A DNA stretch of 64,000 bases from Myxococcota bacterium (GCA_041687695.1 JAWLBL010000001.1:113710-177709); one strand, 5' to 3'. Numbered from the stretch's first letter, positions 27,663 through 57,646 are shown. Numbers and translations are program-made. Notes: generated by a model from the sequence alone, not told the origin.

Positions 27663-27834
27663 CGGGCTCTCTCGGCTGAGTGACCCCGGCATTACCACGC
27701 CGGGGCGGCGCCGTTCAAATGCCCGTTGCGCGGTCGCGATTCCCCGCTGACACCGGCGTAGGCGGCCACGAGGCCGCTGCAGGCAGGTCACGCCCGCGGC
27801 CTCGAGGCCGCGAATGGCAGGTCACCGAGGTCCC

Positions 27835-30800
27835 TCAGGGCAGCTGCAGGCAGTACACCCGGCGCGGCACGGCGCAGGACCCGACCTCGGCGGCGGTCCA
27901 GGCCTCGCCCTCGCCCGCGCAGACGCCCACCAGGGTCCCGCCGCCGGCGGCGCTGTGGGTCCACTCGCCGCAGCTGGCGCCGTAGGTCGACAGCGGCGGC
28001 GGCGCCTTGCCCTTGGGGGTCGTGCCGGTCCAGGCCGTGCACTCGGCCGACGCAGGCTGCGCGAACTCGGTCCAGGTCAGCGGGGCCGCCAGCGCGCCGT
28101 CGACCAGATCCGCGGCGTCGGTCGCGACCAGCCTCGTCCACAGCTGGTGCTCGGGGTCCCAGGTGCGCCAGGGGCCGCCGCCCGAAAAGCGCGAGATCGC
28201 GTCCTGGCCGGGCACCGAGAGCCAGGCCGCGTACGAGCCCGGCAGCCCCGCCGCGAAGGCCAGGCTGGCGCACAGGCTGTCGGCGCCGGCGACGCCGTTG
28301 AGGTCGCCCGCCTTGGCCTCGAGCGAGGTCACGAAGGCCCGCGGGTGGTCCGCCACGCAGCCGGCGAAGCTCTCGCTGCTGCCCTCGGGGCAGTAGCAGG
28401 TCGCCACGCCGCCCTCGGCCTTGCAGCGATCGGGGCCGGGGGGCTGGCATGGATCCAGGCCGTCCTCGGTGTTCTGGGGCAGGCAGGGGTCCAGCACGCA
28501 CACGCCGAAGGCCTTGACCCAGCCGGCCTCGCACCCGCAGACCGCCACGCCGTCCACCGCCGTGCAGCCCTGCTCGTGCGGGTTGGTGCAGGGGTCGGGC
28601 AGGCAGGGGTCGTCGGTGCAGCCGCCCAGCCCGTCGTCGTGCAGCGGCGGCGCGCACAGGCAGCGCGCCTCGCCGGTCGAGGCGTCGCAGATGGGCTTGA
28701 GCGGGTCGATCGTGCACGGGTTCGGGTCGCACAGGGCGTTGTCGAAGCGGAAGCCGAAGAGCTCGCCCGGGCCGATGAGCTGCATGCGCACGCGGAAGCG
28801 CTGGGCGGTGATGGCGTCGAGCGGCGGCAGGTCGACGAAGTCGTCGATGTAGTCGCCCTTGTTCAGGATCTTCTCGCTGAACTGGGTCACGGTGCCGATG
28901 GAGGTCAGGCCCTCGACGCGGACGAAGAGCTTGCCGTCGACGCGCGCGTTCACGTACAGGCGCGAGGCGACCTTGCCGGGCGCCATGCGCATCGGGCGCG
29001 TCACCAGGTTGTTGGTGCCGCCCGCGGCCTCGAGCCCGGCGAACCCGCCCTCGCGCACCGTGGCGCGGAAGACGCCGCCGGCCGCCTTGGCGTCGGTGCA
29101 CGTGCTCATCTCGACGCCGCCCGCGAAGAAGTGCCACAGGCCGCCCTCGGCCGCCGGCGGGCCGCCGGTCAGGCTGTCGATGCTGGTGTCCGGCTGCCCG
29201 TCGTCGAAGGCGTTGGCCAGGATGGCGTCCAGATCGGGGGTCAGCTCGTCGCGAACGAACGCCCAGTGGCGGCCGTCGCGGCTGGAGACCAGGGACACGT
29301 AGGCGGTCTTGGGGCAGACGTTCAGGCGCTTCTGGACGAGGCCGAGCCACACGCTGCCGGCGCGCCAGGCCACCATGTCACCCATGACGCGGCCGGCGCC
29401 CAGCTCGTCCTGGGTGGGGCCCAGGACGCCGGGCATCTGGACGGCGTTGGGCGAGGCGATCCAGCCCGCGGTGGGGTCGGCGCTGCCGAAGGCGACGGCG
29501 CGGGCGTCGCCGAGGGTGGCCGAGGTGACGGCGGCCAGGGCGACGAAGCGCTGGTCGACCGGGTCCCAGACCAGGCGGGTGCGCTCGCCGACGCGGGCGT
29601 AGAGATCGGGCAGCTCGGCCGTGGTCTTCATGTCGAGGACCGGCCCGGAGGCGGCCGGGGTGAAGGCCACGCCGTCGGGCGAGGTGTAGACGTAGACCCC
29701 GGGCGCGCTGACGGCGCCGATGGGCAGGCGGGTGACCGACAGGACGAAGGCGCCGCCCTTCAGGGCGACCTCGGCGGTGACCAGGCCGTCGTCGCGCAGG
29801 ACGCAGTGCGAGGCGGGGACGGCCTCGTCCAGGACGGGCTCGACCCAGGGGCCCTCGGGCGAGGCGGCGGCGGAGACGCACAGCCAGGAGGGCTGGCTGT
29901 CGACCGCGTACAGCTGGCGGTAGCCCATGGTGTAAAGGCGCCACGGGTAGGGCTTGAGCGGGTGCTCGTCGGGCAGGGCCGCGCGCACGTCCTCGGGCAC
30001 GTGGACCAGGCTGCCGGCGGCGCGGGCGCGGCCGATGGCGGCGGCCCCCTCGAGGTCGGGCTCGACGACCCAGCCGCCCTGGCGGGTCAGCGTGTGCACG
30101 CGGCGCGACAGGCCCTCGCGGCTGGCGATGAACCAGTCGTCGACGAAGAGCTGCGGGCGGTCGTCGATGACCAGATCGCCCTTGCCCGGGCCGGGGACGG
30201 CCGCGAGGCTCTGGATGGGGCCCTCGATGCAGCCGCCCTCGTACTCGATGAAGCCGGGGTCGCAGGCGCACTGGGCGGCGCCGGGCAGCTCGGGCACGCA
30301 GGTGGTCTGCGCGTAGCCGTTACAGGGGTTGGGGTCGCAGGGGTCGTCGACGCAGGTCTCGGTCGTCTCGCAGACGTCGGGGCACTCGGGCGGGACCTCG
30401 CAGTCGTCGCAGGGCTCGCAGACGCCGGGCGTGCAGGTCTCGTTGCCCCAGGTGACCTGGCCGGGCGCGCACTGGCACAGGGCGACGGGCCCCTCGGGCA
30501 CGCAGGTCGTGAACGGCGCCTCGCCGCAGGGGTTGGGCAGGCACGGGTCGAAGGTGCAGGCGCCGGTCCCGTCGTCGTGCGCCCCGGGGTCGCAGTAACA
30601 CAGCGGCGACCCGTCGGGGTTGAGCGCGCACGAGGTCTTGAGCGGCTCCTTGCAGGGGTTGGGCGTGCAGGCGCTCGGGGCGACGCAGGTCAGCAGATCG
30701 CCCTGGTAGACCTCGATGAAGCCGTTCAAGCACCCGCCGCAGAAGCCCGAGAAGCACTCCTTGTTGAGCAGCGTGCAGCCCTCGCACGGGTCCGTCGGGT

Positions 30801-31107
30801 CGAGCGCGCAGTCGCCGAACTCGTCGGCCACGTAGCCCGGCAGGCAGTCCCAGCACAGCCCGCCCGAGCACTCCTTGTGCTGCGCGAGGCACGGGTCGGG
30901 GATGCACGGGTCCTGGACCGTCTCGCCGGGCCCCACCTCGGCGCCGCCGTCGGGGGACGAGCCGTCGGGTCCCTTGGCGTCCGGCACGTCGGGGCCGTCG
31001 TCGCCCTCGGCCACCTCGTTCGCCCACAGGTCCACCACCTCGGTGCACCCGCCCGCGGCGATGGCCCCGACCACGACAGCCAGCGCCCACCCTCTCGTCG
31101 CTCCCAC
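27835..31107 (-). CDS. Large Cys-rich surface lipoprotein: EGF-like DPCxPNPC repeats, central propeller-like region, DUF1554-like C-terminus
   Basis: AGGC lipobox; repeated DPC-x-P-N/D-P-C; SRDG..W Asp-box-like motif; AFVTS..GDLNGVAGADSLC...AWLS...YCLQ; GGAGG RBS. Confidence 0.75.
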   Translation of the reverse strand: MGATRGWALAVVVGAIAAGGCTEVVDLWANEVAEGDDGPDVPDAKGPDGSSPDGGAEVGPGETVQDPCIPDPCLAQHKECSGGLCWDCLPGYVADEFGDCALDPTDPCEGCTLLNKECFSGFCGGCLNGFIEVYQGDLLTCVAPSACTPNPCKEPLKTSCALNPDGSPLCYCDPGAHDDGTGACTFDPCLPNPCGEAPFTTCVPEGPVALCQCAPGQVTWGNETCTPGVCEPCDDCEVPPECPDVCETTETCVDDPCDPNPCNGYAQTTCVPELPGAAQCACDPGFIEYEGGCIEGPIQSLAAVPGPGKGDLVIDDRPQLFVDDWFIASREGLSRRVHTLTRQGGWVVEPDLEGAAAIGRARAAGSLVHVPEDVRAALPDEHPLKPYPWRLYTMGYRQLYAVDSQPSWLCVSAAASPEGPWVEPVLDEAVPASHCVLRDDGLVTAEVALKGGAFVLSVTRLPIGAVSAPGVYVYTSPDGVAFTPAASGPVLDMKTTAELPDLYARVGERTRLVWDPVDQRFVALAAVTSATLGDARAVAFGSADPTAGWIASPNAVQMPGVLGPTQDELGAGRVMGDMVAWRAGSVWLGLVQKRLNVCPKTAYVSLVSSRDGRHWAFVRDELTPDLDAILANAFDDGQPDTSIDSLTGGPPAAEGGLWHFFAGGVEMSTCTDAKAAGGVFRATVREGGFAGLEAAGGTNNLVTRPMRMAPGKVASRLYVNARVDGKLFVRVEGLTSIGTVTQFSEKILNKGDYIDDFVDLPPLDAITAQRFRVRMQLIGPGELFGFRFDNALCDPNPCTIDPLKPICDASTGEARCLCAPPLHDDGLGGCTDDPCLPDPCTNPHEQGCTAVDGVAVCGCEAGWVKAFGVCVLDPCLPQNTEDGLDPCQPPGPDRCKAEGGVATCYCPEGSSESFAGCVADHPRAFVTSLEAKAGDLNGVAGADSLCASLAFAAGLPGSYAAWLSVPGQDAISRFSGGGPWRTWDPEHQLWTRLVATDAADLVDGALAAPLTWTEFAQPASAECTAWTGTTPKGKAPPPLSTYGASCGEWTHSAAGGGTLVGVCAGEGEAWTAAEVGSCAVPRRVYCLQLP

Positions 31108-31171
31108 GCGTCCTCCTGGATCGGATCGGGCTCGGACGCCGGAGCATAGCGGCGGGGCGGGAAGCCAGCAA

Positions 31172-31272
31172 GTTGGGTGGGTGGGGGTGGGGGGTGGTGG
31201 GGGGGGGGGGTGAGGTGGGGGGTTTGGGGGGCGAGGCGGCAGGGGGTGGGGGCGAGGCGGCAGGGGGTGGGC
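31172..31272. repeat. G-rich low-complexity tract with a long poly-G run and a short tandem duplication
   Basis: gggtgggtgggggtgggggg..., (gggggcgaggcggcaggggg) twice. Confidence 0.7.
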
Positions 31273-31430
31273 GAGGTGCGGTAGCCTTCGCTTCGGCCGG
31301 CCTCAAGGGCTTTGTCCCCCTTGGCCGTCCTGACGGCCGGCCAATTCCTCGCGGACGACAAAGCCCTTGACCCCGGCCTACGCTGCGGCTGGGGGGCTGA
31401 TATTGGCCCGGACGGGGGCGTCCGGGCCGC
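31273..31430. ncRNA. Conserved structured element (RNA or ssDNA), copy 1
   Basis: 14-bp stem tcaagggctttgtc/gacaaagcccttga (31303-31316 / 31357-31370) with nested and flanking stems; near-identical at 55086-55244. Confidence 0.5.
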
Positions 31431-31557
31431 GGGGCGGCCCGAGACCCGGACTGGGTCGTGGGGTGCCGGGGTGGGCGGCTGGTCGGAGGTCCATGGGCCG
31501 GTCGCGCATGGTGGGCGTTGGGTCGGCATGCGGGGCAGAATTAAACGATTGAGTGAT

Positions 31558-31876
31558 TAGTCGTCCCGGGGCAGTGGTCCAAGGGCGGGTCGCCGTCCCG
31601 GGGCGGGAGCCAGCGGGTCGTCGTCCCGGGGCGGGAGGTCCGGGGGCGGGTCGTCGTCCCGGGGCGGGAGGTCCGGGGGCGGGTCGTCGTCCCGGGGCGG
31701 GAGGTCCGGGGGCGGGTCGTCGTCCCGGGGCGGAAGCCAGCGCGTCGTCGTCCCGGGGCGGAAGCGCGTCGTCGTCCCGGGGCGGAAGCCAGCGCGTCGT
31801 CGTCCCGGGGCGGAAGCCAGCGCGTCGTCGTCCCGGGGCGGAACTCCCAGAGCGGGTCGCCGTCCCGGGGCGGAAG
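31558..31876 (+). repeat. Array of 11 copies of the 21-bp motif GTCGTCGTCCCGGGGCGG(A/G)AG with 3-12 bp linkers
   Basis: Counted directly; first copy is partial. Confidence 0.95.
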
Positions 31877-32133
31877 CGCGGGGCGGAAGCGCGGGGCGGA
31901 CGCGCGGGGCGGGGCCGAGTCGAGAAATCGACATCTGGATGGGGCGGGGAGGGAAATAGTTGTTGACGGATTTCAGGGGCGCTCTGCGGGCGATCGAGGG
32001 TCGGGGTCGAGGAGGGGCTGGAAGGGGCCTGGGAGGCTCTACAGCGCGCTGATCCGGGGGAAGGGTCGTCGCGAGTCGTCCGGAGGCGCTGAACGGGCGT
32101 CCAGGGGGCGCTACGAGGGAGAGGGGCCCCCCG

Positions 32134-32161
32134 TGCTATGCTCGTGGCCTCGATTGGGAGG
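32134..32161 (+). promoter_or_regulatory. Extended -10 (TGnTATGCT) and RBS of HNH gene 1
   Basis: TG-C-TATGCT at 32134-32142 and GGGAGG; conserved in copy 2. Confidence 0.5.
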
Positions 32162-32169
32162 GCTTCGGG

Positions 32170-33321
32170 ATGAGCAAGGGCTTGGAAGTGCTGAGGAAGT
32201 TGAGCGACGAGGGGCTGCTGGGGCGGGTCGGCGAGCTGGTCGACCTGGAGCGACGGACGACGGCCAATCTGGTGGTCTCGTTGGCCGAGGTCGAGGTGAG
32301 GGAGCTGCACCTGCGGGATGGGAGCCCGTCGCTGTTCACGTGGTGTCGCGAGCGGTGGGGCTTTGGTGAGGACAAGGCCTACAACTACGTGAAGGCCGTG
32401 GAGTGGGTGCGACGGTGGCCGGAGATGGGGGCCATGCTGGCCGACGGACGGCTGAGCTTGAGCGGGATGCGGGTGATCGGGCCGCATCTGGACGAGGGGA
32501 ACGTAGGCGAGCGGCTGGCCGAGGCCGCCGGCAAGAGCAAGCGCGAGCTGACGGAGCTGGTGGCCCGATGGTCGCCGCGGCCGGACGTGCCGGCGCGGCT
32601 GTTCAAGCTGCCGCCGTCCCGGGGCGGAGAGACCGGCGCGGCGAAGCGGGCGACCGCTGAGGAGGCGGACCAGGCGAACACGCTGTCGCTGGAGCGGCCG
32701 AAGGTGGAGCATCGGGTCGAGCCGCTCTCGGAGGCGCGGTATCGGGTGCAGGTGACGGTCGGAGCTCGGGTCGCCGCCAAGCTCGAGGAGGCGATGGCGA
32801 TCGCCGGGCATCAGGTCGCTTCCGGCGACTATGAGACGCTGCTGGAGATGGCGCTGGACGTCTTCCTGGCCGCCAAGAAGAAGCAGCGGTTCGGGGTGGG
32901 AGCCAGGCGGCGGACGAAGAAGGCCGTGGAGAAGGCGCCGAAGGGGGACGACGGGGTCGCCATGGCCGGCGAGTCGGTCGAGGAAGCGGCCGAGAGCGTG
33001 GCCGCGGCGGACGAACCGGCCGGGGCGGAGCCGGACGCGGCGGGGCCGGAGGTGAGAGACCGGAGCCGGGCCATTCCGGCCGAGGTCAAGCGGGCCGTGG
33101 TGGAGCGGGATGGCCTGAGGTGCACCTTCGAAGGCCCGGGGGGACGGTGCAGCGAGACGAGGCGGCTCGAGCTCCACCACGTCGAGGCGTTCGCGAGGGG
33201 CGGCCGGCACTCCGTCGACAACCTCCGCGTCGTCTGTCAGGCCCACAACCTGCTCATCGCCCGGCAGGAGCTGGGGGCCGACTACGTCGCGCGGAAGATC
33301 GGCCGGCGGGACGCGGCGTGA
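32170..33321 (+). CDS. HNH endonuclease with DUF222-like helical N-terminus, copy 1
   Basis: VKRAVVERDGLRC..C...LELHHVEAFARGG.HSVDNLRVVCQAHN; N-terminal LSDEGLL...LAEVE.RELH...SLF.WC. Confidence 0.9.
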   Translation: MSKGLEVLRKLSDEGLLGRVGELVDLERRTTANLVVSLAEVEVRELHLRDGSPSLFTWCRERWGFGEDKAYNYVKAVEWVRRWPEMGAMLADGRLSLSGMRVIGPHLDEGNVGERLAEAAGKSKRELTELVARWSPRPDVPARLFKLPPSRGGETGAAKRATAEEADQANTLSLERPKVEHRVEPLSEARYRVQVTVGARVAAKLEEAMAIAGHQVASGDYETLLEMALDVFLAAKKKQRFGVGARRRTKKAVEKAPKGDDGVAMAGESVEEAAESVAAADEPAGAEPDAAGPEVRDRSRAIPAEVKRAVVERDGLRCTFEGPGGRCSETRRLELHHVEAFARGGRHSVDNLRVVCQAHNLLIARQELGADYVARKIGRRDAA

Positions 33322-33377
33322 CCTTCCGCCCCGGGGCGGTGGGCTCGGTCTGCCCTCCCCTTTCAACGACAAGCGCT

Positions 33378-33517
33378 CGGCCACGGTCACGGCCACCGAA
33401 CCGGCCACGGCCACGGAACCGGCCACGGCCACGGAACTGGCCACGGCCACGAAACCGGCCACGGCCACGGTACCGGCCACGGCCACGGCCACGGAACCGG
33501 CCACGGTCTCGGCCACG
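33378..33517. repeat. Hexamer/18-mer tandem repeat (ggccac ggccac ggaacc)n
   Basis: Directly visible between the HNH gene and the convergent mlaC-like gene. Confidence 0.85.
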
Positions 33518-33543
33518 AAGGCGGACGCGTTCACGGCTACGGA

Positions 33544-34215
33544 TCAGCGCGTGGCGGGGCTCGGGATGCGGGCCAGCTCGGCCTCCAGGGCGGGGAGGCC
33601 CCCCTCCTTGTAGGCGCGGCCGAAGCGGGCGCGCCACAGGCGCATCAGGCTGGTGCCGTCGAGGAGGACGTCGCGGACGCGCCAGGAGTCCTGGGTGAGG
33701 CGGAGGTCGAGCGTCAGGGTGCGGGCGCGGCCGGTGGGACGGTGGTGGATGCGGACCTCGACCGCCGCGCGGGCGCAGTCGCCGGTCACGGAGACGACCT
33801 CGAGGGTCGAGCGGGTCGGGTCGCCGAGGCGGGCGCGGTAGTGGGTCTGGAGCAGGGCCGCCAGGGCCCGGGTCCAGCGGGCGCGGGCGGTCTCGTCGGC
33901 GGCGTCCCAGGCGGCGCGGAGGACGTCCTGGGCGAAGCCGGTGGTGTCGAAGCCCGCGCGGGACCAGGCGTCGAGGCCGCGGGCCAGCAGCTCGGCGCGG
34001 CGGGGGCCCGGCAGGGCGGCCTGGTGGACGGCGACGAGGCGGGCGAAGGCGTCTCGGACGGCCTGGGCGGCGGCGTCAGGGCCGGGGCACGGGGCGGTCG
34101 GGGTCGTTGAGGCGACCTGGGGCGGGGGCTCGGCGCGCGTGGGCGGGGCCGTGAGCGCGAGGAGGGCCGCGGCCGCGAGGACGTGCGACAGCTGGGCGGC
34201 GAGCGTGCGGCGCAT
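33544..34215 (-). CDS. MlaC/Ttg2D-like periplasmic lipid-binding protein
   Basis: Signal peptide; FD...AQDVL..AW and WRVRDVLLDGTSLMRLWRARF...GGL. Confidence 0.7.
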   Translation of the reverse strand: MRRTLAAQLSHVLAAAALLALTAPPTRAEPPPQVASTTPTAPCPGPDAAAQAVRDAFARLVAVHQAALPGPRRAELLARGLDAWSRAGFDTTGFAQDVLRAAWDAADETARARWTRALAALLQTHYRARLGDPTRSTLEVVSVTGDCARAAVEVRIHHRPTGRARTLTLDLRLTQDSWRVRDVLLDGTSLMRLWRARFGRAYKEGGLPALEAELARIPSPATR

Positions 34216-34455
34216 GGGGACCGGGGGGGCGGGGAGTGGAGGGGGTCGGCGGGGAGGCATAGCGGAGCCGAGAGGTCGGCGCAATCGGGACGTAACCGGC
34301 GTCGGAGTCGCGTGTAGGCTTGCAACGCGAGGGGGGGCGCGGGACTTCCGAGCGGGCGGGCGGCGTTGGTGGGGGCTCGACAGCGGCGGCTCGATGAGGC
34401 AGCGTCGCGAGACCGACGCCCGCCGTCTGTGGCCGTTTCCCACTCCACGAGGCCT

Positions 34456-37416
34456 ATGGCTATCGACAAACCGGGTGAGCGCCCCTCGAAGGGGGCCGAC
34501 GTCCCCGAGGTGCCCGAGGCGCCGCCCGCGCGGCCCGGGCCCGACGTGCCGGCGACCGGGCTCGAGCCGTCGCCCACACCGAGCCAGATGCTGGTCGTCG
34601 ACCGGCAGGCGCAGTGCGCGCCGCCGCCGTCGCTGTTCCGCGACGTCGAGGAGCGGCGGCTGCTCAACCCGAGCCAGATGCTGTCGCGGCCGAACCTGCT
34701 GACGCGCCTGTTCTCGCACGTCATGTTCAAGCGGGTGGCCTTCGACGACAAGCACGTCGCGACCATCCGGGACGCCGAGCGCGAGGGCAACGTGGTGTTC
34801 GCCATGAACCACCACAGCCTGCTCGACTACCTGTACTTCAACTACGCCTTCAAGCGCATCGGGCTGCCGCTGGTCTTCTTCGCCAACGAGATCGCCATGA
34901 CGGCCTTCCGGCCGCTGTGGCAGCTCGCCGGGCGCGGCCTGCGCCGGCTGTTCGGGCGCCTGAGCCGCCGCCTGCAGGACACCGAGCTGCTCGCCTACGG
35001 GCTCGAGCGCAAGCGCCCCGCCCTGGTCTTCCTCAAGCGCAGCTCGCTGTGGCCCTGGGCGACCAGCGGCAGCGCCGACAAGTACCTGAAGACCGTCCTG
35101 ACCGCCCAGCTCGACCGCATCCACGCTTGCGAGGGCACCGGCCGCCAGCCCATGCCCATCCGCGTCATCCCGCAGCTGCTCATCTGGTCGCAGGACCCCG
35201 ACCGCTACGGCCGCCGCCTGCGCGACCTCGTGTTCGGCAACCCCGAGGCGCCCAGCCCGCTGCGCAAGATGATCAGCTTCGTGCTCAACCGCCGGCGCGC
35301 CTTCGTGCAGGTCGGCAAGCCCATCGACCTGGTCGAGTTTCTGGGCGCGCAGCCGCCGGGCACCAACCTGGACGAGCTGGCGCGCAAGCTGCGCTTCGTC
35401 ATCCGGCAGGCGCTGACGCTCGAGGAGCGGGTCATCAAGGGCCCCATCCTCAAAGACGCCAAGCGCATCCGCGAGGAGATCCTGCGCACGCGCGAGATGC
35501 AGGCGGCCATCCAGCACATCGCCAAGGACACCGGCCGCACGGTCGAGCAGACCGAGAAGGAGATCGGCGGCTACCTGAAGGAGATGGCCGCCGACTTCAG
35601 CATCTCGTACATCGAGTTCATGTGCATGATGCTGACGGTGATCTTCGACCGCATCTACAGCGAGGTGGTCCCGGATCTGCAAGGCATCGACAAGGTGCGC
35701 GAGGCCGCGCGCAAGGCACCGCTCATCCTGCTGCCCTGCCACCGCAGCCACGTCGACTACCTGGTCATCAGCTACCTGTTCTACGCCAACGGCCTCATCC
35801 CGCCGCACATCGCCGCGGGCAACAACCTGAACTTCTTCCCGATGGGGCACATCTTCCGCCGCTCGGGGGCCTTCTTCATCCGGCGCACCTTCAAGGGCAA
35901 CCAGGGCTACACGGTCGCCTTCCGCGAGTACCTGCGAAAGCTCATCAAGGAAGGCTACTGGATCGAGTTCTTCATCGAGGGCGGGCGCTCGCGCACCGGC
36001 AAGATGCTGCCGCCCAAGTACGGCATGCTCGACAGCATCATCGAGGCCGTGCAGTCGGGCGCTGCGCCGGACGTGTACCTGGCCCCCGTGTATCTGGGCT
36101 ACGAGCAGATCATCGAGGAGCGCGCCTACACGCAGGAGCTGTCGGGCGCCGAGAAGAAGAAGGAGAACATCACGTCGCTGCTCAAGACGACCAAGGTGCT
36201 GTGGTCGCGCTACGGGCGGCTGTACGTGAACTTCGCCGAGCCGATGAGCATCCGCGAGCTGCTCGACCAGGCCGGCCTGCTCGCCGAGGACCACGGCCTG
36301 CCCGAGGGCGAGGCCCACGACCAGTTCGTGCGGCGCACGGCCTACCGCGTGCTGGCCGGCATCAACGACGTGGCGATGGTCACGCCGACGGCGGCGACCG
36401 CGATGGCCCTGCTGATGCACCCCAAGCGGGGCGTCAGCCGGCAGGTGCTGCTGGCGCGCGTCGGCTTCATCCTCGAGGTCGCCAGCCGCAAGCAGGCGCC
36501 GCTGTCCAAGACGCTCATCCACGCCCTGAAGATCCGCCGGCAGGAGGTCGCCGCCGCCGTCGAGGCCCTCGAGGCCGAGGGGCGCCGCCACCTGACGCTG
36601 GCGCTGGGCGAGGCCAGCCAGGTCGCCGCGGCGCGCGGTCAGGCGGTGGTCGAGGCGGTCGACGAGGCGCTGAGCCGCTTCATCCAGCAAAAGCACATCG
36701 AGCGGCACGTCTTCGACGACGAGGTCGTCTACACGCCGGTGCCCGACCAGCGCATCAACCTGGACTTCTACAAGAACAACATCGTCCACCTGTTCACGGC
36801 CGAGTCCATCTTCGCGGCGGCCTACTTCGGCGTCGCCAAGCGCGAGGCGGCGACCGTCGGGCGCGTGCGCGAGGCGGCGCGCTTTCTGTCGCGGACCTTC
36901 AAGCACGAGTTCGTCTACAACCCGGACCGCCCCTTCGACGTGCAGTTCGAGGCGACCCTGGACGAGTTCGTCGCGTCGGGCTTCCTGACGGTCGACGAGG
37001 TCGCCGAGGGTGAGGCCAGCTCCATGACCGGGGACGAGGCCATCCTGCGGGTCACCGAGGTGGCCGAGACCACGATGCGCCTGCTGCACCAGGTGCTCGA
37101 GCCGTGGCTCGAGGCGTACTGGCTGCTGGCGGTCGGCCTCGAGCAGCACCTGCTGCAGACCATGCCCGAGAAGGAGTTCGTCAAGCGGGTGCAGCGCATG
37201 GCGCGGCGGCTGTACCAGGAGGGCGACATCTCGTGCCCCGAGGCGTCGAGCTCGGTGACGTTCTCGCACGCCATCAACGCCTACGAGGAGATGGGCCTGG
37301 TCAAGCGGAGCCGCAAGGGCCGCGACAAGCTGCTGAGCCTGGACGCGCCGTCGGCCGAGCACCCCGAGACCATCCCGGCCCTGGCCGACCGCCTGCGGGA
37401 CTTCTTCAGCTACTGA
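34456..37416 (+). CDS. plsB: Glycerol-3-phosphate acyltransferase
   Basis: PCHRSHVDYL, AAGNNL, GAFFIRRTF, FFIEGGRSRTGK. Confidence 0.92.
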   Translation: MAIDKPGERPSKGADVPEVPEAPPARPGPDVPATGLEPSPTPSQMLVVDRQAQCAPPPSLFRDVEERRLLNPSQMLSRPNLLTRLFSHVMFKRVAFDDKHVATIRDAEREGNVVFAMNHHSLLDYLYFNYAFKRIGLPLVFFANEIAMTAFRPLWQLAGRGLRRLFGRLSRRLQDTELLAYGLERKRPALVFLKRSSLWPWATSGSADKYLKTVLTAQLDRIHACEGTGRQPMPIRVIPQLLIWSQDPDRYGRRLRDLVFGNPEAPSPLRKMISFVLNRRRAFVQVGKPIDLVEFLGAQPPGTNLDELARKLRFVIRQALTLEERVIKGPILKDAKRIREEILRTREMQAAIQHIAKDTGRTVEQTEKEIGGYLKEMAADFSISYIEFMCMMLTVIFDRIYSEVVPDLQGIDKVREAARKAPLILLPCHRSHVDYLVISYLFYANGLIPPHIAAGNNLNFFPMGHIFRRSGAFFIRRTFKGNQGYTVAFREYLRKLIKEGYWIEFFIEGGRSRTGKMLPPKYGMLDSIIEAVQSGAAPDVYLAPVYLGYEQIIEERAYTQELSGAEKKKENITSLLKTTKVLWSRYGRLYVNFAEPMSIRELLDQAGLLAEDHGLPEGEAHDQFVRRTAYRVLAGINDVAMVTPTAATAMALLMHPKRGVSRQVLLARVGFILEVASRKQAPLSKTLIHALKIRRQEVAAAVEALEAEGRRHLTLALGEASQVAAARGQAVVEAVDEALSRFIQQKHIERHVFDDEVVYTPVPDQRINLDFYKNNIVHLFTAESIFAAAYFGVAKREAATVGRVREAARFLSRTFKHEFVYNPDRPFDVQFEATLDEFVASGFLTVDEVAEGEASSMTGDEAILRVTEVAETTMRLLHQVLEPWLEAYWLLAVGLEQHLLQTMPEKEFVKRVQRMARRLYQEGDISCPEASSSVTFSHAINAYEEMGLVKRSRKGRDKLLSLDAPSAEHPETIPALADRLRDFFSY

Positions 37417-54542: not shown

Positions 54543-54567
54543 CCTTAGGGGCTTCGGGTCGAGCGGC

Positions 54568-55058
54568 CTGGGATCGCCGGCTTTGAGTCGGCTGGGGAGG
54601 CGCGGGGCGGTGGATCGGCGGTCTGGGACCGCCGGCTTCCAGCCGGCTGGACGGCGCGGGGCGGTGGGTTGGCGGCCTGGGATCGCCGGCTTCCAGCTTC
54701 CAGCCGGCTGGACGGCGCGGGACGGTGGGTTGGCGGGCTGGAATCGCCGGCTTCCTGCTGGCCGGACGGGAGCGGGGCGGTGGGTCGGCGGTCTGGGATC
54801 GCCGGCTTCCAGCCGGCCTGGACGGCGCGGGGCGGTGGGTCGGCGGTCTGGGATCGCCGGCTTCCAGCCGGCTGGACGGCGCGGGGCGGTGGGTTGGCGG
54901 CCTGGGATCGCCGGCTTCCAGCCGGCTGGACGGCGCGGGGCGGTGGGTTGGCGGGCTGGGATCGCCGGCTTCCAGCCGGCCTGGACGGCGCGGGGCGGTG
55001 GGTTGGCGGTCTGGGATCGCCGGCTTCCAGCCGGCTGGACGGCGCCGGACGGTGGGTC
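54568..55058. repeat. Tandem array of 9 REP-like units of ~54-55 bp, each with a GCCGGC-TTCCA-GCCGGC hairpin
   Basis: ctgggatcgccggcttccagccggc at about 54568, 54623, 54677, 54738, 54793, 54848, 54902, 54956, 55011. Confidence 0.92.
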
Positions 55059-55085
55059 GAGGGGCCGAGGGGTTGAGGGGTCGAG

Positions 55086-55244
55086 GAGGTGCGGTAGCCT
55101 CCGCTTCGGCCGGCCTCAAGGGCTTTGTCCCCCTTGGCCGGCCTGGTGGCCGACCAATTCCTCGCGGACGACAAAGCCCTTGACCCCGGCCTACGCTGCG
55201 GCTGGCGGGCTGACATCGGCCCGGAAGGGGGCCTTCCGGGCCGC
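55086..55244. ncRNA. Conserved structured element (RNA or ssDNA), copy 2
   Basis: Stem 55116-55129 / 55170-55183; compensatory change in the 3' hairpin relative to copy 1. Confidence 0.5.
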
Positions 55245-55371
55245 TTCGCGTCCCGGCGCGGGCACTGGGGCAGCGGGTGCGGGGGGAGGCGGCTGGTCGG
55301 AGGCTCCAGGAGGCGGGTCGAGGCTGGTCGCGGGGGTCTGGGATGGAGTGGGAATTAAACGGCCGTGTAAT

Positions 55372-55823
55372 TAGTCGTCCCGGGGCGGAAGTCCAGGTCG
55401 TCGTCCCGGGGCGGAAGTCCAGGTCGTCGTCCCGGGGCGGAAGTCCAGGTCGTCGTCCCGGGGCGGAAGTCCAGGTCGTCGTCCCGGGGCGGAAGCGCGC
55501 GGGTCGTCGTCCCGGGCCGGAAGGCGCGCCGGTCGTCGTCCCGGGGCGGAAGCGCGCGGGTCGTCGTCCCGGGGCGGAAGTCCAGGTCGTCGTCCCGGGG
55601 CGGGAGCGCGCCGGTCGTCGTCCCGGGGCGGAAGCGCGCGGGTCGTCGTCCCGGGGCGGAAGGCGCGCCGGTCGTCGTCCCGGGGCGGAAGTCCAGGTCG
55701 TCGTCCCGGGGCGGGAGCGCGCCGGTCGTCGTCCCGGGGCGGAAGTCCAGGTCGTCCTCCCGGAGCGGAACTCCAGGTCGTCGTCCCGGGGCGGAAGCCC
55801 AGGTCGCCGTCCCGGGGCGGAAG
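55372..55823 (+). repeat. Array of 17 copies of GTCGTCGTCCCGGGGCGGAAG with 5-8 bp linkers
   Basis: Counted directly; linkers tccag, cgcgcgg and (g)cgcgccg recur. Confidence 0.95.
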
Positions 55824-56043
55824 CCGGGACCAGAAAAGCGACATGCGGACGCGGCGAGGATGCAAATAGTTGTTGACGGATTTCGGGGAGACGTTTTGGG
55901 CGATCCGGGGTCGGCCGGAGGGAGGGCCTGGAAGGCCCCTGGCAGGCTCCACGGCGCGCTGATCAGGGGTCAGGGTCGTCGCGAGTCGTCCGAGAGGCCT
56001 GAACGGCCGTCCAGGGGGTGCTCCGAGGGGATTGAGACCCCCG

Positions 56044-56071
56044 TGTTATGCTGCAGGCCTCGATTGGGAGG
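56044..56071 (+). promoter_or_regulatory. Extended -10 (TGnTATGCT) and RBS of HNH gene 2
   Basis: TG-T-TATGCT at 56044-56052 and GGGAGG. Confidence 0.5.
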
Positions 56072-56079
56072 GCTGCGGG

Positions 56080-57300
56080 ATGAGCAAGGGCTTGGAAGTG
56101 CTGGGGAAGTTGTCCGACGAGGGGCTGCTGGGCCGGGTCGGCGAGCTGGTCGATCTGGAGCGGCGGACGACGGCCAACCTGGTGGTTCTGCTGGCCGAGG
56201 TCGAGGCGAGGGAGCTGCACCTTCGGGACGGCAGCCCGTCGCTGTTCGAGTGGTGCCGGACGCGGTGGGGCTTTGGAGAGGACAAGGCCTACAACTACGT
56301 CAAGGCCGTCGGGTGGGTGCGGCGGTGGCCGCAGATGGGCGCCATGTTGGCCGATGGGCGGCTGAGCCTGAGCGGGGTGCGGGTCATCGGACCTCACCTG
56401 AGCGAAGAGAACGTCGGCGAGCGGCTGGCCGAGGCCGCCGGGAAGAGCAAGCGCGAGCTGACCGAGCTGGTGGCGAAGTGGTCGCCGCGGCCGGACGTCC
56501 CCGCGCGGGTGTTCCGGTTGCCACCGCCCCGGGGCGGAGCGCGGGCCGAGGCGCCGAAGCGGACCGAACCGCGGCGCTCTGCCGAGCTGACGCTGGCACA
56601 GCCCAAGCCGAAGCACCGGGTCGAGCCGCTCTCGGAGGCGCGGTATCGGGTGCAGGTGACGGTCGGGGCGCGGGTGGCGGCCAAGCTCGAGGAGGCGATG
56701 GCGCTGGTCGGGCATCAGGTCGCGTCCGGGGACTACGAGACGCTCTTGGAGATGGCCCTGGACGTCTTCCTGGCCGCGAAGAAGAAGCAGCGGTTCGGGG
56801 TCGGGGCCAAGCGGCGGGCGAAGAAGGCCGCCGTGAAGGCGCCCGAGTCGGCCGAGAGCGTGGCCGTGGCCGGCGAATCGGCCGAGAGCGTGGCCGTGGC
56901 CGGCGAGTCGGTCGAGAGCGTGGCCATGGCCGGAGAGTCGGTCGAGGCCGCGGCGAGCGATGCGGAGGCGGAGGTGACGGAACGCAGCCGTGCCATCCCG
57001 GCCGAGATCAAGCGGGCCGTGGTCGAGCGGGACGGGCTGCGGTGCACCTTCGAGAGCCCGGGAGGGCGGTGTACCGAGACACGCCGGCTGGAGTTGCACC
57101 ACGACGAGGCCTTCGCCAAGGGCGGCGCTCACTCGGTCGAGAACATTCGGGTCGTCTGTCAGGCCCACAACCTGCTCATCGCCCGCCAGGAGCTGGGGGC
57201 GCGGTTCGTCGCCAAGAAGGTCGGCGAGCGGCGGGCGGGGGCCGTTCCGCCCCGGGACGGGAGCGCCGACCATCGGCCCGGACGAGCAGGTCGTGGATGA
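56080..57300 (+). CDS. HNH endonuclease with DUF222-like helical N-terminus, copy 2
   Basis: Close paralog of 32170-33321; LELHHDEAFAKGGAHSVENIRVVCQAHN; internal (ESxESVAxAG) x3 repeat. Confidence 0.9.
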   Translation: MSKGLEVLGKLSDEGLLGRVGELVDLERRTTANLVVLLAEVEARELHLRDGSPSLFEWCRTRWGFGEDKAYNYVKAVGWVRRWPQMGAMLADGRLSLSGVRVIGPHLSEENVGERLAEAAGKSKRELTELVAKWSPRPDVPARVFRLPPPRGGARAEAPKRTEPRRSAELTLAQPKPKHRVEPLSEARYRVQVTVGARVAAKLEEAMALVGHQVASGDYETLLEMALDVFLAAKKKQRFGVGAKRRAKKAAVKAPESAESVAVAGESAESVAVAGESVESVAMAGESVEAAASDAEAEVTERSRAIPAEIKRAVVERDGLRCTFESPGGRCTETRRLELHHDEAFAKGGAHSVENIRVVCQAHNLLIARQELGARFVAKKVGERRAGAVPPRDGSADHRPGRAGRG

Positions 57301-57345
57301 CTCCGCCCCGGGACGACGACTACTCGCCGGCTTCCAGAGACTGTC

Positions 57346-57520
57346 GTATCGACGCCGCCGAAGGCGGCCTTGGAGTGCTCCAGCTTGCTGGAGCCCTGAT
57401 TCGCGCAGCTTGCTGCGCCGGGACGGCGGCGATGTCCCGGCGGCAAGCCGCCGGCGCTGGGGCGCGAGCAAGCTCGCGCACTCCGAGTGGGCTCTTTGCG
57501 ACACCCTCTTCCAGCCGGCC
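57346..57520. repeat. REP-like composite palindrome related to 1-329
   Basis: ggcggccttggagtgctccagcttg is the near reverse complement of 57-81; shares gcagcttgctgcgccggg and accctcttccagccggcc. Confidence 0.75.
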
Positions 57521-57646
57521 TGGTTGAGCGACGACCGAGCGCGGTCCGCCTGGGATCTGTCCCCCCACCCCCAGCCCGCGCCACCCTTTACACCCCGCCC
57601 TCCCCGGCTATCCTGCCGCGGGCCTGACCCTTGGAGGAGGCGCGCG

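Follow-up and report, generated by a model that had tools for sequence, protein, structure and literature searches.

What is a single HNH nuclease gene doing behind a folded segment and a long row of short repeats, and why does the whole arrangement recur within one stretch of bacterial DNA? The preliminary description of the window (the whole stretch analyzed here, 64 kb) took two such loci for either a selfish or mobile element or an RNA-associated nuclease system. Our analysis favors the former. With a probability only slightly better than even (about 0.55), both loci belong, as copies, to a lineage-specific family of small (2.2–3.2 kb) self-propagating DNA elements, each with one DUF222-like/REP13E12-type HNH gene, and the same estimate holds for the best reading of their behavior, as selfish, nuclease-driven elements of the REP13E12/DUF222-HNH kind.

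Anatomy of the Two Loci

Both loci are present as described, with their parts in the same fixed order, and they align at 86% mean column identity over about 2.1–2.3 kb. Copy A opens with a G-rich tandem-repeat tract (31174..31279, plus strand; TRF rows 31174-31281; G 0.74 and C 0.08 in the last 100 nt), which lies outside a 165-nt structured end piece (31280..31444, plus strand; covariance-model match C1:144989-145153). An AT-rich motif found by pattern match (31538..31560, plus strand) abuts the first unit of an 11-unit array of a quasi-palindromic site, which passes into a degenerate 13-nt tail repeat (31556..31912, plus strand; cores from 31564 to 31863). The conserved leader (31913..32169, plus strand) precedes the gene for a 383-aa protein (32170..33321, plus strand), and a single palindromic site in inverted orientation (33326..33339, minus strand) lies 5 nt past the stop codon. 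This site is the element terminus: homology among the one-armed copies C1a, C2b, C2c, C4a, and C12 stops just beyond it.

In copy B, a short G-rich tract of 8-nt repeats (55050..55092, plus strand) stands between a REP-like 54-bp minisatellite, which the insertion interrupts, and the structured end piece (55093..55258, plus strand; covariance-model match C1:168802-168967). Then follow, all on the plus strand, the AT-rich motif (55352..55374, by pattern match), a 17-unit array (55374..55825), the leader as delimited by alignment (55826..56079), and the gene (56080..57300), whose 406-aa product is 79–80% identical to its paralog and whose second linker contains an in-frame 30-nt tandem repeat (TRF 56844-56946). 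Two inverted sites (57244..57321, minus strand) close the copy, one at 57247 in the ORF tail and one at 57303-57321 past the stop, where the element ends (57321). All parts claimed for the loci were thus recovered, from the structured segment of about 160 bp and the AT-rich motif to the arrays of 11 and 17 units, the leader of about 255 bp, and the inverted site after the stop. The motif core occurs 26 times in forward and twice in reverse orientation in the 64-kb window, every time within one of the two loci. Three sites had escaped the first reading: a cognate site in each ORF, located in a disordered linker in copy A (32614..32629, core 32617, plus strand; pattern match) and in the corresponding linker in copy B (56524..56539, core 56527, plus strand), and the extra inverted site of copy B at 57247.

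A Family of Symmetric Elements

The statement that the arrangement is present twice holds within the window; the genome as a whole contains 22 copies of the HNH gene, 21 of them intact ORFs (378–431 aa), and 43 strong covariance-model matches to the 165-nt folded segment. The HNH gene is the sole ORF of this dispersed multicopy unit; the flanks differ between copies, and the insertion sites are unrelated. The complete, ancestral element is symmetric, consisting of a left arm, the leader, the HNH gene, and an inverted right arm, and full copies of this form are found, for example, at C4:340300-343200, C6:74783-77993, C11, and C33. Going inward, each arm starts with a variable G-rich minisatellite; the 165-nt folded segment comes next, then a short AT-rich motif, and last the 16-bp quasi-palindromic sites in a row. 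The inverted arms of two-armed copies measure 600–900 bp, and one-armed copies retain only the inverted site of 14–19 nt. Gene-less pairs of arms, of the type left by internal deletion, lie at C27:85544-86549 and C7:201564-202476. Copy A is a member of a clade whose right arm was lost once, yet which still spread. Copy B is a two-armed copy that was truncated independently, its inverted sites being the first unit of an otherwise lost right-hand array (compare the full right arm at C4:342322-343058).

The earlier view of a multicopy, self-contained element whose conserved non-coding parts travel with the gene is upheld by the surroundings of the hairpins. The HNH gene is invariably on their inner side; that side carries at least three motif cores in 34 of 42 cases (of the other eight hairpins, four are no more than 159 nt from a contig end) and an HNH gene within 2.5 kb in 26 of 42. 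A G-rich tract is found outside 23–28 of the 43 hairpins, and with a strict pattern 22 of 42 arms show a relative of the AT-rich motif about 90–120 nt inward of the hairpin. Breaks in the assembly coincide with arms.

The family is patchily distributed, occurring in 3 of the 18 genomes from the order and in 6 of 31 relatives, and a tblastn search of plasmids gave no match to the protein. No target-site duplication was seen in a non-exhaustive reading by eye of the junctions of A, B, and C4:340435-343058. HNH is the sole domain that Pfam, NCBIfam, and PHROGs recognize in the element's one ORF; a DDE, HUH, serine, or tyrosine recombinase is not among their matches.

The Folded End Piece

The end piece of copy A combines a long imperfect palindrome, branched at its tip, with an 11-bp stem-loop. 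The folding z-scores are –4.62 (copy A, DNA parameters) and –4.53 (copy B, RNA parameters); none of 200 shuffles is as stable. Compensatory changes occur in 6 of 53 pairs, a level reached by none of 500 shuffles, and 98.7% of cells are paired, versus 26–51% when the partner is slid; when the 35 full copies are all included, compensation is seen in 11 of 50 pairs. With 91% column identity, the hairpin is conserved far above synonymous sites (median dS 0.47). Distances between hairpins are correlated with distances between proteins (Mantel r 0.48, a value equaled or exceeded in 18 of 5000 permutations), and both arms of one element rank among each other's nearest relatives (1–9 of 24). No Rfam family reaches its gathering threshold in the window, and at E ≤ 1 only an unrelated sRNA (E 0.38) is reported in 31150-32250; a search of 31100-33600 for sigma-70-like promoters and intrinsic terminators found 0 of either.

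Site Arrays and Leader

The repeat is a 16-bp quasi-palindrome with CCCGGG at its center. Its earlier description as a 21-bp repeat fits the conserved block of about 21–22 nt, to which each unit of the array adds a variable part of 2–11 nt, so that the period is 24–33 nt. In subfamily 1, the asymmetric form of the site is found upstream in all 14 copies and the palindromic form in none; in subfamily 2, all seven copies have the palindromic form, and C33 alone also has the other one. In the ORF linker, the site matches the type of its own subfamily in 13 of the 14 subfamily-1 copies and all 7 subfamily-2 copies. Because the site variant tracks the protein subfamily, even inside the ORF, we read the arrays as protein-binding sites, and this covariation of sequences suggests that they are likely bound by the encoded protein itself. 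Two other candidates were rejected: an iteron-type replication origin, given the varying period of 24–33 nt, the lack of a Rep-type domain, and the 22 chromosomal copies, and a CRISPR-like array.

The leader contains blocks that are invariant in an alignment of 19 copies, three of which recur in the elements of a relative from the same order (G011, see below); it is probably a promoter with regulatory blocks plus a ribosome-binding site. As a candidate structured RNA it was rejected, because its consensus fold is worth no more than –17.6 kcal/mol and the covariation term is –1.46.

The Encoded Protein

The Pfam HNH model (PF01844) matches the product of copy A (P0001) with 23.1 bits versus a cutoff of 21.4, and that of copy B (P0002) with 16.5 bits, below the cutoff; 64 of 96 relatives match at E ≤ 0.01. 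The catalytic His337 as well as Cys318 and Cys327 are invariant in the 96 relatives, and conservation is 90% or higher at Cys356, His359, and Asn360. In agreement with the preliminary description, Pfam finds no RuvC or Nop-type domain in the window proteins and the 96 relatives. The epithet DUF222-like is borne out only weakly, as the window proteins give no match to DUF222 (PF02720) at E ≤ 0.1, and 3 of the 96 relatives match it weakly (best E 3.2e-4).

The AF2 model has a pLDDT of 84, and the N-terminal domain folded alone reaches 95. The top nine Foldseek matches of this domain are all ParB/Noc (TMq 0.40–0.54, eight of nine at 0.48–0.54, E about 1), and its comparison with KorB/ParB yields VIA Z of 6.2–7.0, below the tool's safe level for helical folds. 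The middle domain resembles ribbon-helix-helix (RHH) centromere-binding proteins and antitoxins with Z of 4.4–4.8; the fold matches of both DNA-binding-type domains are too weak to rule out that they reflect a common helical arrangement. RHH-like features of the model are a strand at 191–194 and helices at 199–214 and 221–241. A ribbon-type homodimer is predicted, with contacts of 193–196 with 191–195 and a score of 0.45 versus 0.00 for the best control; among solved one-chain pairs, 20 of 30 attain this mark, and among single chains, 1 of 23. Between runs, 95% or more of the homodimer contacts coincide, with pLDDT of at least 64; RHH dimers have been solved already, so this pass may reflect likeness. 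Taken together, the protein models as a ParB/KorB-like helical domain, an RHH-like dimer domain, and an HNH nuclease.

Selection and Spread

The paralogs are under purifying selection. The 91 pairs of subfamily 1 have a dN/dS ratio of 0.245 and the 21 pairs of subfamily 2 one of 0.227; among the most similar pairs (dS 0.16–0.21) it is 0.15–0.24, and the three domains, with 0.16, 0.10, and 0.21, are all constrained. The one-armed copies, eight in number, form one clade (FastTree, midpoint root, without support values), and a derivative with a single arm has spread. Near-identical copies are absent (maximum nucleotide identity 93.5%, minimum dS 0.156), and hence there is no sign of recent movement.

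Related Elements in Other Genomes

In the same-order relative G011, eight loci carry a unit of 2.1–2.3 kb with inverted arms of 254–425 bp, in which 28 of 88 pairs are compensated. The arm sequence is unrelated to the hairpin of the window family, and the rows on both sides consist of a different palindrome, CCCCGGGG-centered. G011 is an independent lineage with analogous covarying arms and palindrome arrays. G015 has a single complete locus without inverted arms. Closer protein relatives, 72–81% identical, are encoded on other NCBI contigs.

Whether hairpin and array accompany the homologs of the gene, a question raised by the preliminary description, thus has a divided answer: the same-order relative has arms that are analogous and of different sequence, and the distant homologs (30–40% identity) mostly have none. 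None of the 80 distant-homolog loci and none of the 30 related genomes yielded the hairpin of the window family. Tandem arrays occur in the flanks within 1.5 kb in 11 of the 80 distant loci (a short-period upstream array in five); of the 59 distant loci whose flanks extend 800 nt or more in both directions, 6 are flanked by inverted repeats at E ≤ 0.01. Since distant homologs mostly have neither the hairpin nor inverted repeats, the arms are lineage-specific and not needed by the family at large. In metagenomes, a 17-nt invariant piece of the hairpin has at least 119 matches; these are chance matches, as 0 of 80 loci scored by the covariance model hold the hairpin. The distant relatives are likewise multicopy within genomes, and in most genomes the repeated unit comprises little beyond the gene and a short leader. 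The family profile recovers 11,069 cluster representatives at E ≤ 1e-30 and 45,130 at E ≤ 0.001.

Discussion

The analysis documents the repeating unit with its anatomy, the joint variation of site and protein, the base pairing of the end piece, the selection on the gene, and the spread of the one-armed form. The steps of binding, cleavage, and copying that we infer for a selfish, nuclease-driven element would run as follows. The protein would bind its own site arrays and control its own promoter, and would bring the arms together; the HNH domain would nick or cut the folded ends or the sites, or DNA close to them; and host recombination or repair would then copy or convert the element. Such a route would be homing-like, nuclease-stimulated gene conversion rather than DDE-type transposition. 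The copying by host repair must be assumed, since an HNH nuclease alone cannot join DNA. The lack of near-identical copies, the absence of a target-site duplication at the junctions read, the weak fold matches, and the distant homologs that do without arms also weigh against this picture.

A comparable unit is the REP13E12 family of Mycobacterium tuberculosis (Gordon et al. 1999, as cited in PMC10589994), which, in the part of the literature accessible to us, shares with the window family a dispersed multicopy unit (about 1.3–2 kb in REP13E12), one HNH gene, a helical N-terminal domain, and the lack of a recognizable transposase. According to the accessible text of a 2026 preprint (PMC13061034), the REP13E12/DUF222-HNH loci of M. 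tuberculosis are among the most often gene-converted and have no defined biological function. The window proteins give no match to DUF222, which 3 of their 96 relatives match weakly, and inverted arms, site arrays, and folded ends, here elaborate and covarying with the protein, are not mentioned for REP13E12 in the accessible parts of PMC10589994 and PMC13061034. Free-standing HNH homing genes, such as mobE of phage T4 (PMC2790892, accessible part), likewise consist of a single HNH gene, whose spread is thought to need a break made by its own product and subsequent repair copying. Homing genes target one cognate allele, whereas the copies of the window family occupy many unrelated sites and possess their own binding-type site arrays, folded inverted ends, and a long history of purifying selection.

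Hairpin repeats of the REPIN/BIME type flank, in inverted orientation, the gene of their presumed mover RAYT (TnpA-REP), a single-copy HUH tyrosine (Y1) enzyme, and also occur gene-free. The window family resembles them in its flanking inverted hairpins, some without a gene, but its enzyme is an HNH protein with 22 copies, and its hairpin is 165 nt long, branched, and accompanied by site arrays. ParB–parS, KorB–operator, and the RHH proteins ParR and ParG bind palindromes of about 13–16 bp or rows of repeats beside their own genes. The N-terminal domain of the window protein matches best the DNA-binding domains of ParB, Noc, and KorB, and the middle domain RHH centromere-binding folds, with modest scores (Z 6–7, E about 1); in contrast to ParB/KorB systems, the window family has no partition ATPase, no CTP-binding N-terminal ParB domain is seen, and a nuclease is attached. 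In the literature searched, with most subscription journals outside it, HNH elements that combine site arrays with folded, inverted arms are not described.

HNH genes of the DUF222/REP13E12 type occur widely and in multiple copies; most genomes offer few clues, because the repeated unit contains little beyond the gene and a short leader. The window family is an unusually readable example of how such genes may spread. Its cis-acting parts are large and legible, independently so in one relative: sites that track the protein, a site within the gene, and folded ends with compensated pairs.

A bolder version, which we put forward tentatively, is an undescribed class of prokaryotic mobile element without a DDE, HUH, serine, or tyrosine enzyme, in which an array-binding HNH nickase would act on branched inverted ends in an ITR/Rep-like manner, and the element would be copied through synthesis primed from a hairpin or a nick, or through break-induced conversion. 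Parvoviruses such as AAV have branched inverted terminal hairpins and rows of short repeats that bind their own nicking protein Rep (HUH plus helicase). The resemblance would be one of working principle only, the window family being chromosomal and bacterial with an HNH enzyme. Terminal inverted repeats are also shared with classical insertion sequences, whose target-site duplication and recombinase were not found here. If such a class exists, the same logic would explain the multiplication of the huge DUF222-like HNH family, and if the HNH enzyme proves to be the sole element-encoded activity needed, it would represent a new way for bacterial DNA to move.

It is unlikely that the arms are instead regulated transcription units, in which the array would be an operator, the AT-rich motif a promoter, and the folded segment a structured ncRNA, with the HNH protein acting mainly as a repressor and RNA partner and the RNA serving the element (e.g., in antisense control or priming) without a programmable guide. 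The strand asymmetry of G011 speaks for such units: one strand folds more stably in every one of the 15 arms (mean difference about 30 kcal/mol), G.T cells number 135 versus 6 A.C (24 versus 21 for a structure derived from the opposite strand), and the favored strand reads array, AT-rich stretch, structure. This specificity points to a single-stranded, possibly RNA, form, which the best explanation does not require; a specific single DNA strand would fit it as well. In the genome of the window, the hairpin is slightly more stable on the strand with the same order (26 of 35 with RNA parameters, 32 of 35 with DNA parameters), and the flank of a transcript outside the hairpin would be C-rich. On identical pairs, however, this hairpin has no strand bias (G.T 11 versus A.C 7), the searches for promoters, terminators, and Rfam families were negative as given above, and DNA ends classically take the form of symmetric, inverted arms.

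We equally doubt that the paralogs are a domesticated family, no longer mobile and kept for a host use such as recombination, chromosome organization, or defense. That purifying selection continued after the latest duplications is as compatible with a maintained function, possibly useful to the host, as with a selfish one: nearly all ORFs (21/22) are intact despite the median dS of 0.47, the low dN/dS extends to the closest pairs and all three domains, and recent copies are absent. A host function accords poorly with the patchy distribution, the unrelated insertion sites, the gene-less arm derivatives, the assembly breaks at arms, and the spread of the one-armed derivative to eight loci, and PADLOC found 0 defense families for the three proteins tested.

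An RNA-guided nuclease in the IscB/HEARO or TIGR-Tas sense, with guides from the upstream array or the leader, is disfavored and very improbable, and the RNA-associated alternative of the preliminary description is not supported. Like the IscB–HEARO/omega RNA (OMEGA) systems, the window family has a conserved non-coding region, here with a repeat array, upstream of an HNH gene of the same subtype, and an association with mobile DNA; the IscB HNH is the nearest in NCBIfam, and IscB chains are among the fold matches with Z of 6.3–7.1 over 59 residues. The match to the IscB model (NF040563), however, covers the HNH piece alone (residues 302–365) with 28.6 bits, far below the cutoff of 175, there is no RuvC domain, guide-bearing RNA, or match to HEARO or another Rfam family, the leader fold is weak, and the protein has two DNA-binding-type domains instead. 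TIGR-Tas systems are characterized, in the accessible part of PMC12045711, by a Nop-type RNA-binding domain and array units with two guide-length spacers; Pfam finds only HNH here, and the variable parts of the array, at 2–11 nt, are too short for guides. Finally, a chance proximity of HNH genes to an unrelated REP/MITE-type repeat, to which the excess of hairpins over genes (43 versus 22) and a few hairpins without a nearby gene might point, is largely refuted by the fixed order, orientation, and spacing of the hairpin relative to array and gene, the inner arrays of 34 of 42 hairpins, the correlated hairpin and protein distances, and the close relationship of the two arms of one element.

Architecture and ends of the element

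The two HNH loci of the window, copy A (31273-33339) and copy B (55086-57322), are homologous from end to end, with 86% mean column identity, and hold the same parts in the same fixed order, as the preliminary description had proposed. A folded segment of 165 nt (the hairpin) is followed by an AT-rich motif (31538-31560 in A and 55352-55374 in B), a repeat array, a roughly 255-bp leader, an ORF with a C-terminal HNH domain (383 aa in A and 406 aa in B), and an inverted repeat copy directly 3' of the stop codon. The arrays indeed contain 11 and 17 units, respectively, but the unit is more than a 21-bp motif: about 21-22 conserved nt are followed by 2-11 variable nt. The motif core occurs 26 times forward and twice in reverse in the 64-kb window, in every case within these loci.

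Copies A and B are partial forms of a larger family. The source assembly (7.97 Mb, 73% G+C) encodes the protein at 22 places, and a covariance model based on 20 hairpins yielded 43 strong matches (E<=1.3e-13), with weak opposite-strand echoes at the same places. The joint map of hairpins, arrays, leaders, and genes shows that the ancestral element was symmetric. This form is readable in full on contig C4 (C4:340300-343200), where a G-rich minisatellite, the hairpin, a spacer of about 110 nt, the AT-rich motif, and an array precede the leader and gene, and an array, the AT-rich motif, the hairpin, and a C-rich minisatellite follow, all inverted. Three or more motif cores lie within 800 nt of 34 of the 42 hairpin matches that span 90 nt or longer, and an HNH gene within 2.5 kb of 26, on the inner side every time; of the eight matches lacking such cores, four are no more than 159 nt from a contig end. 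Thus the non-coding parts do accompany the gene. The 12-nt core was found 192 times in the genome (27 singletons, seven doublet clusters, and the remainder in 17 clusters of at least three) versus about 33 occurrences expected by chance from base composition, and the arrays are therefore element-specific.

Pairs of arms at C27:85544-86549 and C7:201564-202476 enclose no gene and look like internal-deletion derivatives, which are known from other mobile DNA. Clusters of five hairpins (C3:293015-295046) and two hairpins (C47:29731-30290) with short arrays of palindromic sites and no HNH gene may be tandemly rearranged arms.

Eight copies, including A, have a single arm and form one clade in the protein tree of 21 copies (FastTree, LG+gamma, midpoint root, no support values; the broken copy C2b excluded), whereas two-armed copies make up its sister clade and the whole of a second protein subfamily. 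In five copies (C1a, C2b, C2c, C4a, and C12) homology ends a few nucleotides past a palindromic site and the flanks differ; this site is located just past the stop codon in A and within the 3' tail of the ORF in the other one-armed copies compared. Given the single clade, the shared end, and the differing flanks, the right arm was apparently lost once, and the shortened form seems to have reached new loci afterwards. Copy B groups with the two-armed copies; of its right array the first unit is left, and the element ends at 57321.

The outer flanks of the hairpins carry variable tandem repeats, which are rich in G on the strand that runs into the element (for example, window 31174-31279 and C4:343060-343250 of the source genome). 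Tandem repeats occupy at least 30% of the outer flank in 23 of 43 cases, compared to 4.1% of 5000 random windows, and the oriented G minus C value exceeds 0.2 in 28 of 43, compared to 7.6% of random windows in either direction. The minisatellite unit is different at each end, even at the two ends of a single element.

Conservation of the hairpin

The description of this segment as structured and conserved is confirmed by several observations. Folding z-scores are -4.62 in A and -4.53 in B, with none of 200 shuffles equally stable. Over 20 copies, 98.7% of the cells are paired, versus 26-51% when the partner column is slid, and changes on both sides compensate in six of 53 pairs, a number that none of 500 shuffles reached; all 35 full-length copies together give 11 compensated pairs out of 50. 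Hairpin column identity is 91% against a median gene dS of 0.47, and the 110 nt between the hairpin and the AT-rich motif are hardly alignable (three BLAST matches); the hairpin is thus selected and not merely young. Hairpin and protein distances are correlated (Mantel r 0.48; 18 of 5000 permutations as high) in 15 copies, those lacking a left hairpin and C22, C8, and C1c, with partial or indel-rich hairpins, being excluded.

The protein and its candidate binding sites

Pfam, NCBIfam, and PHROGs recognize only the HNH domain in the protein, and PADLOC gives no match. The AlphaFold model (96 relatives; pLDDT 84.3) contains three folded parts with disordered linkers between them. Residues 26-138 resemble the DNA-binding domains of ParB, KorB, and Spo0J (VIA Z 6.2-7.0). 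When this N-domain was folded alone (pLDDT 95.2), the best nine Foldseek matches were all ParB or Noc, with TMq 0.40-0.54 (0.48-0.54 in eight), probability 0.60-0.96, and E about 1; further probabilities were mostly at most 0.1, except for the ParB-family protein Spo0J at ranks 14 (0.30) and 49 (0.20). The predicted match to ParB-type domains is consistent, although statistically insecure.

For residues 191-246 the matches are ribbon-helix-helix proteins, namely the pCXC100 centromere-binding protein (Z 4.8) and the MazE6 N-domain (Z 4.4). A homodimer of residues 176-250 joined by an antiparallel ribbon was predicted with a score of 0.45 (best control 0.00), a mark that 20 of 30 solved one-chain pairs and one of 23 single chains attained; at least 95% of contacts are shared between runs, and the pLDDT of the partner is 64 or higher. 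Since ribbon-helix-helix dimers are already solved, this result may reflect likeness to those structures. The HNH part is similar to phage, McrA, and IscB HNH domains (Z 7.1-7.8), and the catalytic His337 is invariant across the 96 relatives, of which 12 have an added RuvA_C domain and three show weak matches to DUF222. At E<=0.001 the family profile collects 45,130 cluster representatives, of which 11,069 remain at E<=1e-30. Linker length differs among the paralogs, whose intact ORFs encode 378-431 aa; a 30-nt in-frame tandem repeat (3.4 copies, window 56844-56946) lies in the second disordered linker of the B protein.

The site repeated in the arrays is a 16-bp quasi-palindrome centred on CCCGGG, of which several types exist. 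All 14 copies of subfamily 1, to which A belongs, have the asymmetric form upstream (1-28 sites each) and none has the palindromic form, whereas all seven copies of subfamily 2, whose proteins are 54-58% identical to A, have a perfect palindrome, C33 alone carrying the other form as well. One more site, always of the own subfamily's type, occurs within the ORF in the part encoding the first disordered linker; its position is nt 449-452 in subfamily 1 (13 of 14 copies) and nt 497-524 in subfamily 2 (seven of seven). In the gene-less arm pairs two different perfect palindromes alternate, and the asymmetric site combines the left half of one with the right half of the other. Mainly because site type covaries with protein subfamily, the repeats appear, on indirect grounds, to behave as binding sites of the element's own protein.

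Occurrence in other genomes

The hairpin model had no match in 30 related genomes, 80 loci of distant homologs, or 80 metagenome loci. Distant homologs (28-48% identity) occur in several copies per genome in Acidobacteriota, Eisenbacteria, and Polyangiales MAGs, where the repeated unit is the ORF with flanks of about 200-350 bp on its upstream side and 50-300 bp on its downstream side. Flanking inverted matches were detected in only six of 59 distant loci, and a short-period upstream array in five of 80. In one Acidobacteriota MAG (L008), the homolog lies between two direct-repeat copies of 137 bp that are 93% identical and are situated, with respect to the ORF, at about -239..-105 and +39..+175; this end structure is different from that of the source-genome element.

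The family is present in three of the 18 genomes of the order that were analysed. One of them, G011, has an analogous element at eight loci (L226-L233, e.g., L231:1695-3963), with proteins 33-35% identical, a 2.1-2.3-kb unit, and inverted arms of 254-425 bp (~250 nt). Externally, the arms are accompanied on either side by an AT-rich stretch and by rows of a unit that contains two palindromes, one of them centred on CCCCGGGG; a perfect 12-nt palindrome occurs at least three times in the flanks of seven of 90 loci (six from G011, and L047), all centred on CCCCGGGG. Leaders of G011 and of the source genome have three sequence blocks in common. The single complete locus of another genome, G015, has no inverted arms. 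Co-occurrence of such parts with homologs therefore holds for G011 in an analogous form and for few of the distant loci: arms built on this principle, though of different sequence, exist in at least one other lineage and are not a general feature.

Interpretation

The simplest account, in agreement with the mobile-element reading in the preliminary description, takes the family, here 22 gene copies and 43 hairpins, to be a selfish element of the type known as REP13E12/DUF222-HNH. The element's own protein would bind the site arrays, providing autoregulation and end pairing; the folded ends would mark the place of putative cleavage by the HNH domain; and host repair of the nick or break would copy the element to new places. 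This account fits the mycobacterial relatives, REP13E12/DUF222-HNH loci being described as gene-conversion hot spots (PMC13061034). Within this kind, the cis-acting parts would have become large in the source lineage. We found no description of HNH elements with such arms in the literature searched.

An RNA role of the arms is a live rival, favored by the G011 fold. The 15 G011 arms, which have no Rfam match, form a closed multi-hairpin structure (88 pairs, 94.3% of cells paired, 28 compensated) that is strongly strand-specific, with 135 G.T versus six A.C cells (24 versus 21 for the opposite-strand structure) and the outer-to-inner strand more stable in 15 of 15 arms. On identical pairs, the source-genome hairpin has 11 G.T and seven A.C cells, and its strand opposite the gene shows slightly greater stability in 26 of 35 copies under RNA parameters and in 32 of 35 under DNA parameters.

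Alternatively, the copies may be a domesticated paralog family useful to the host. The main point in its favor is their age and constraint. Intact ORFs are retained in 21 of 22 copies (C2b lacks its 5' end and contains a stop codon); median dN/dS is 0.245 in subfamily 1 (91 pairs) and 0.227 in subfamily 2 (21 pairs), and 0.16, 0.10, and 0.21 in the three domains. The closest pairs have dS 0.16-0.21 and dN/dS 0.15-0.24, and nucleotide identity between copies does not exceed 93.5%; thus the copies are old, each constrained since the last duplications. Long constraint after duplication is unusual for insertion sequences. Finally, with regard to the RNA-associated nuclease suggested earlier, an RNA-guided enzyme is not supported, as HNH is the sole domain recognized by Pfam, NCBIfam, and PHROGs and the loci match no Rfam family.

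Sequences adjoining the elements

Copy B splits an array of an unrelated 54-bp repeat, nine tandem units of which lie at 54563-55057 and a degenerate copy at 57500-57555. Each unit contains a small stem-loop of the GCCGGC...GCCGGC type, and the 18-nt core occurs 109 times at about 56 places in the genome; it is a REP-like family separate from the HNH element, copies B and C12 of which adjoin its arrays. Upstream of A, ORFs of about 1100 aa are open on both strands (27814-31149), as expected at 73% G+C, and the minus-strand ORF (27835..31107) has no Pfam match at E<=1e-4. On the other side, A is followed by a minus-strand gene that encodes a C-terminal MlaC domain (33544..37362), and the gap between the element and the stop codon of this gene contains an 18-nt tandem repeat (33378-33541; 5.8 copies, 91% matches).
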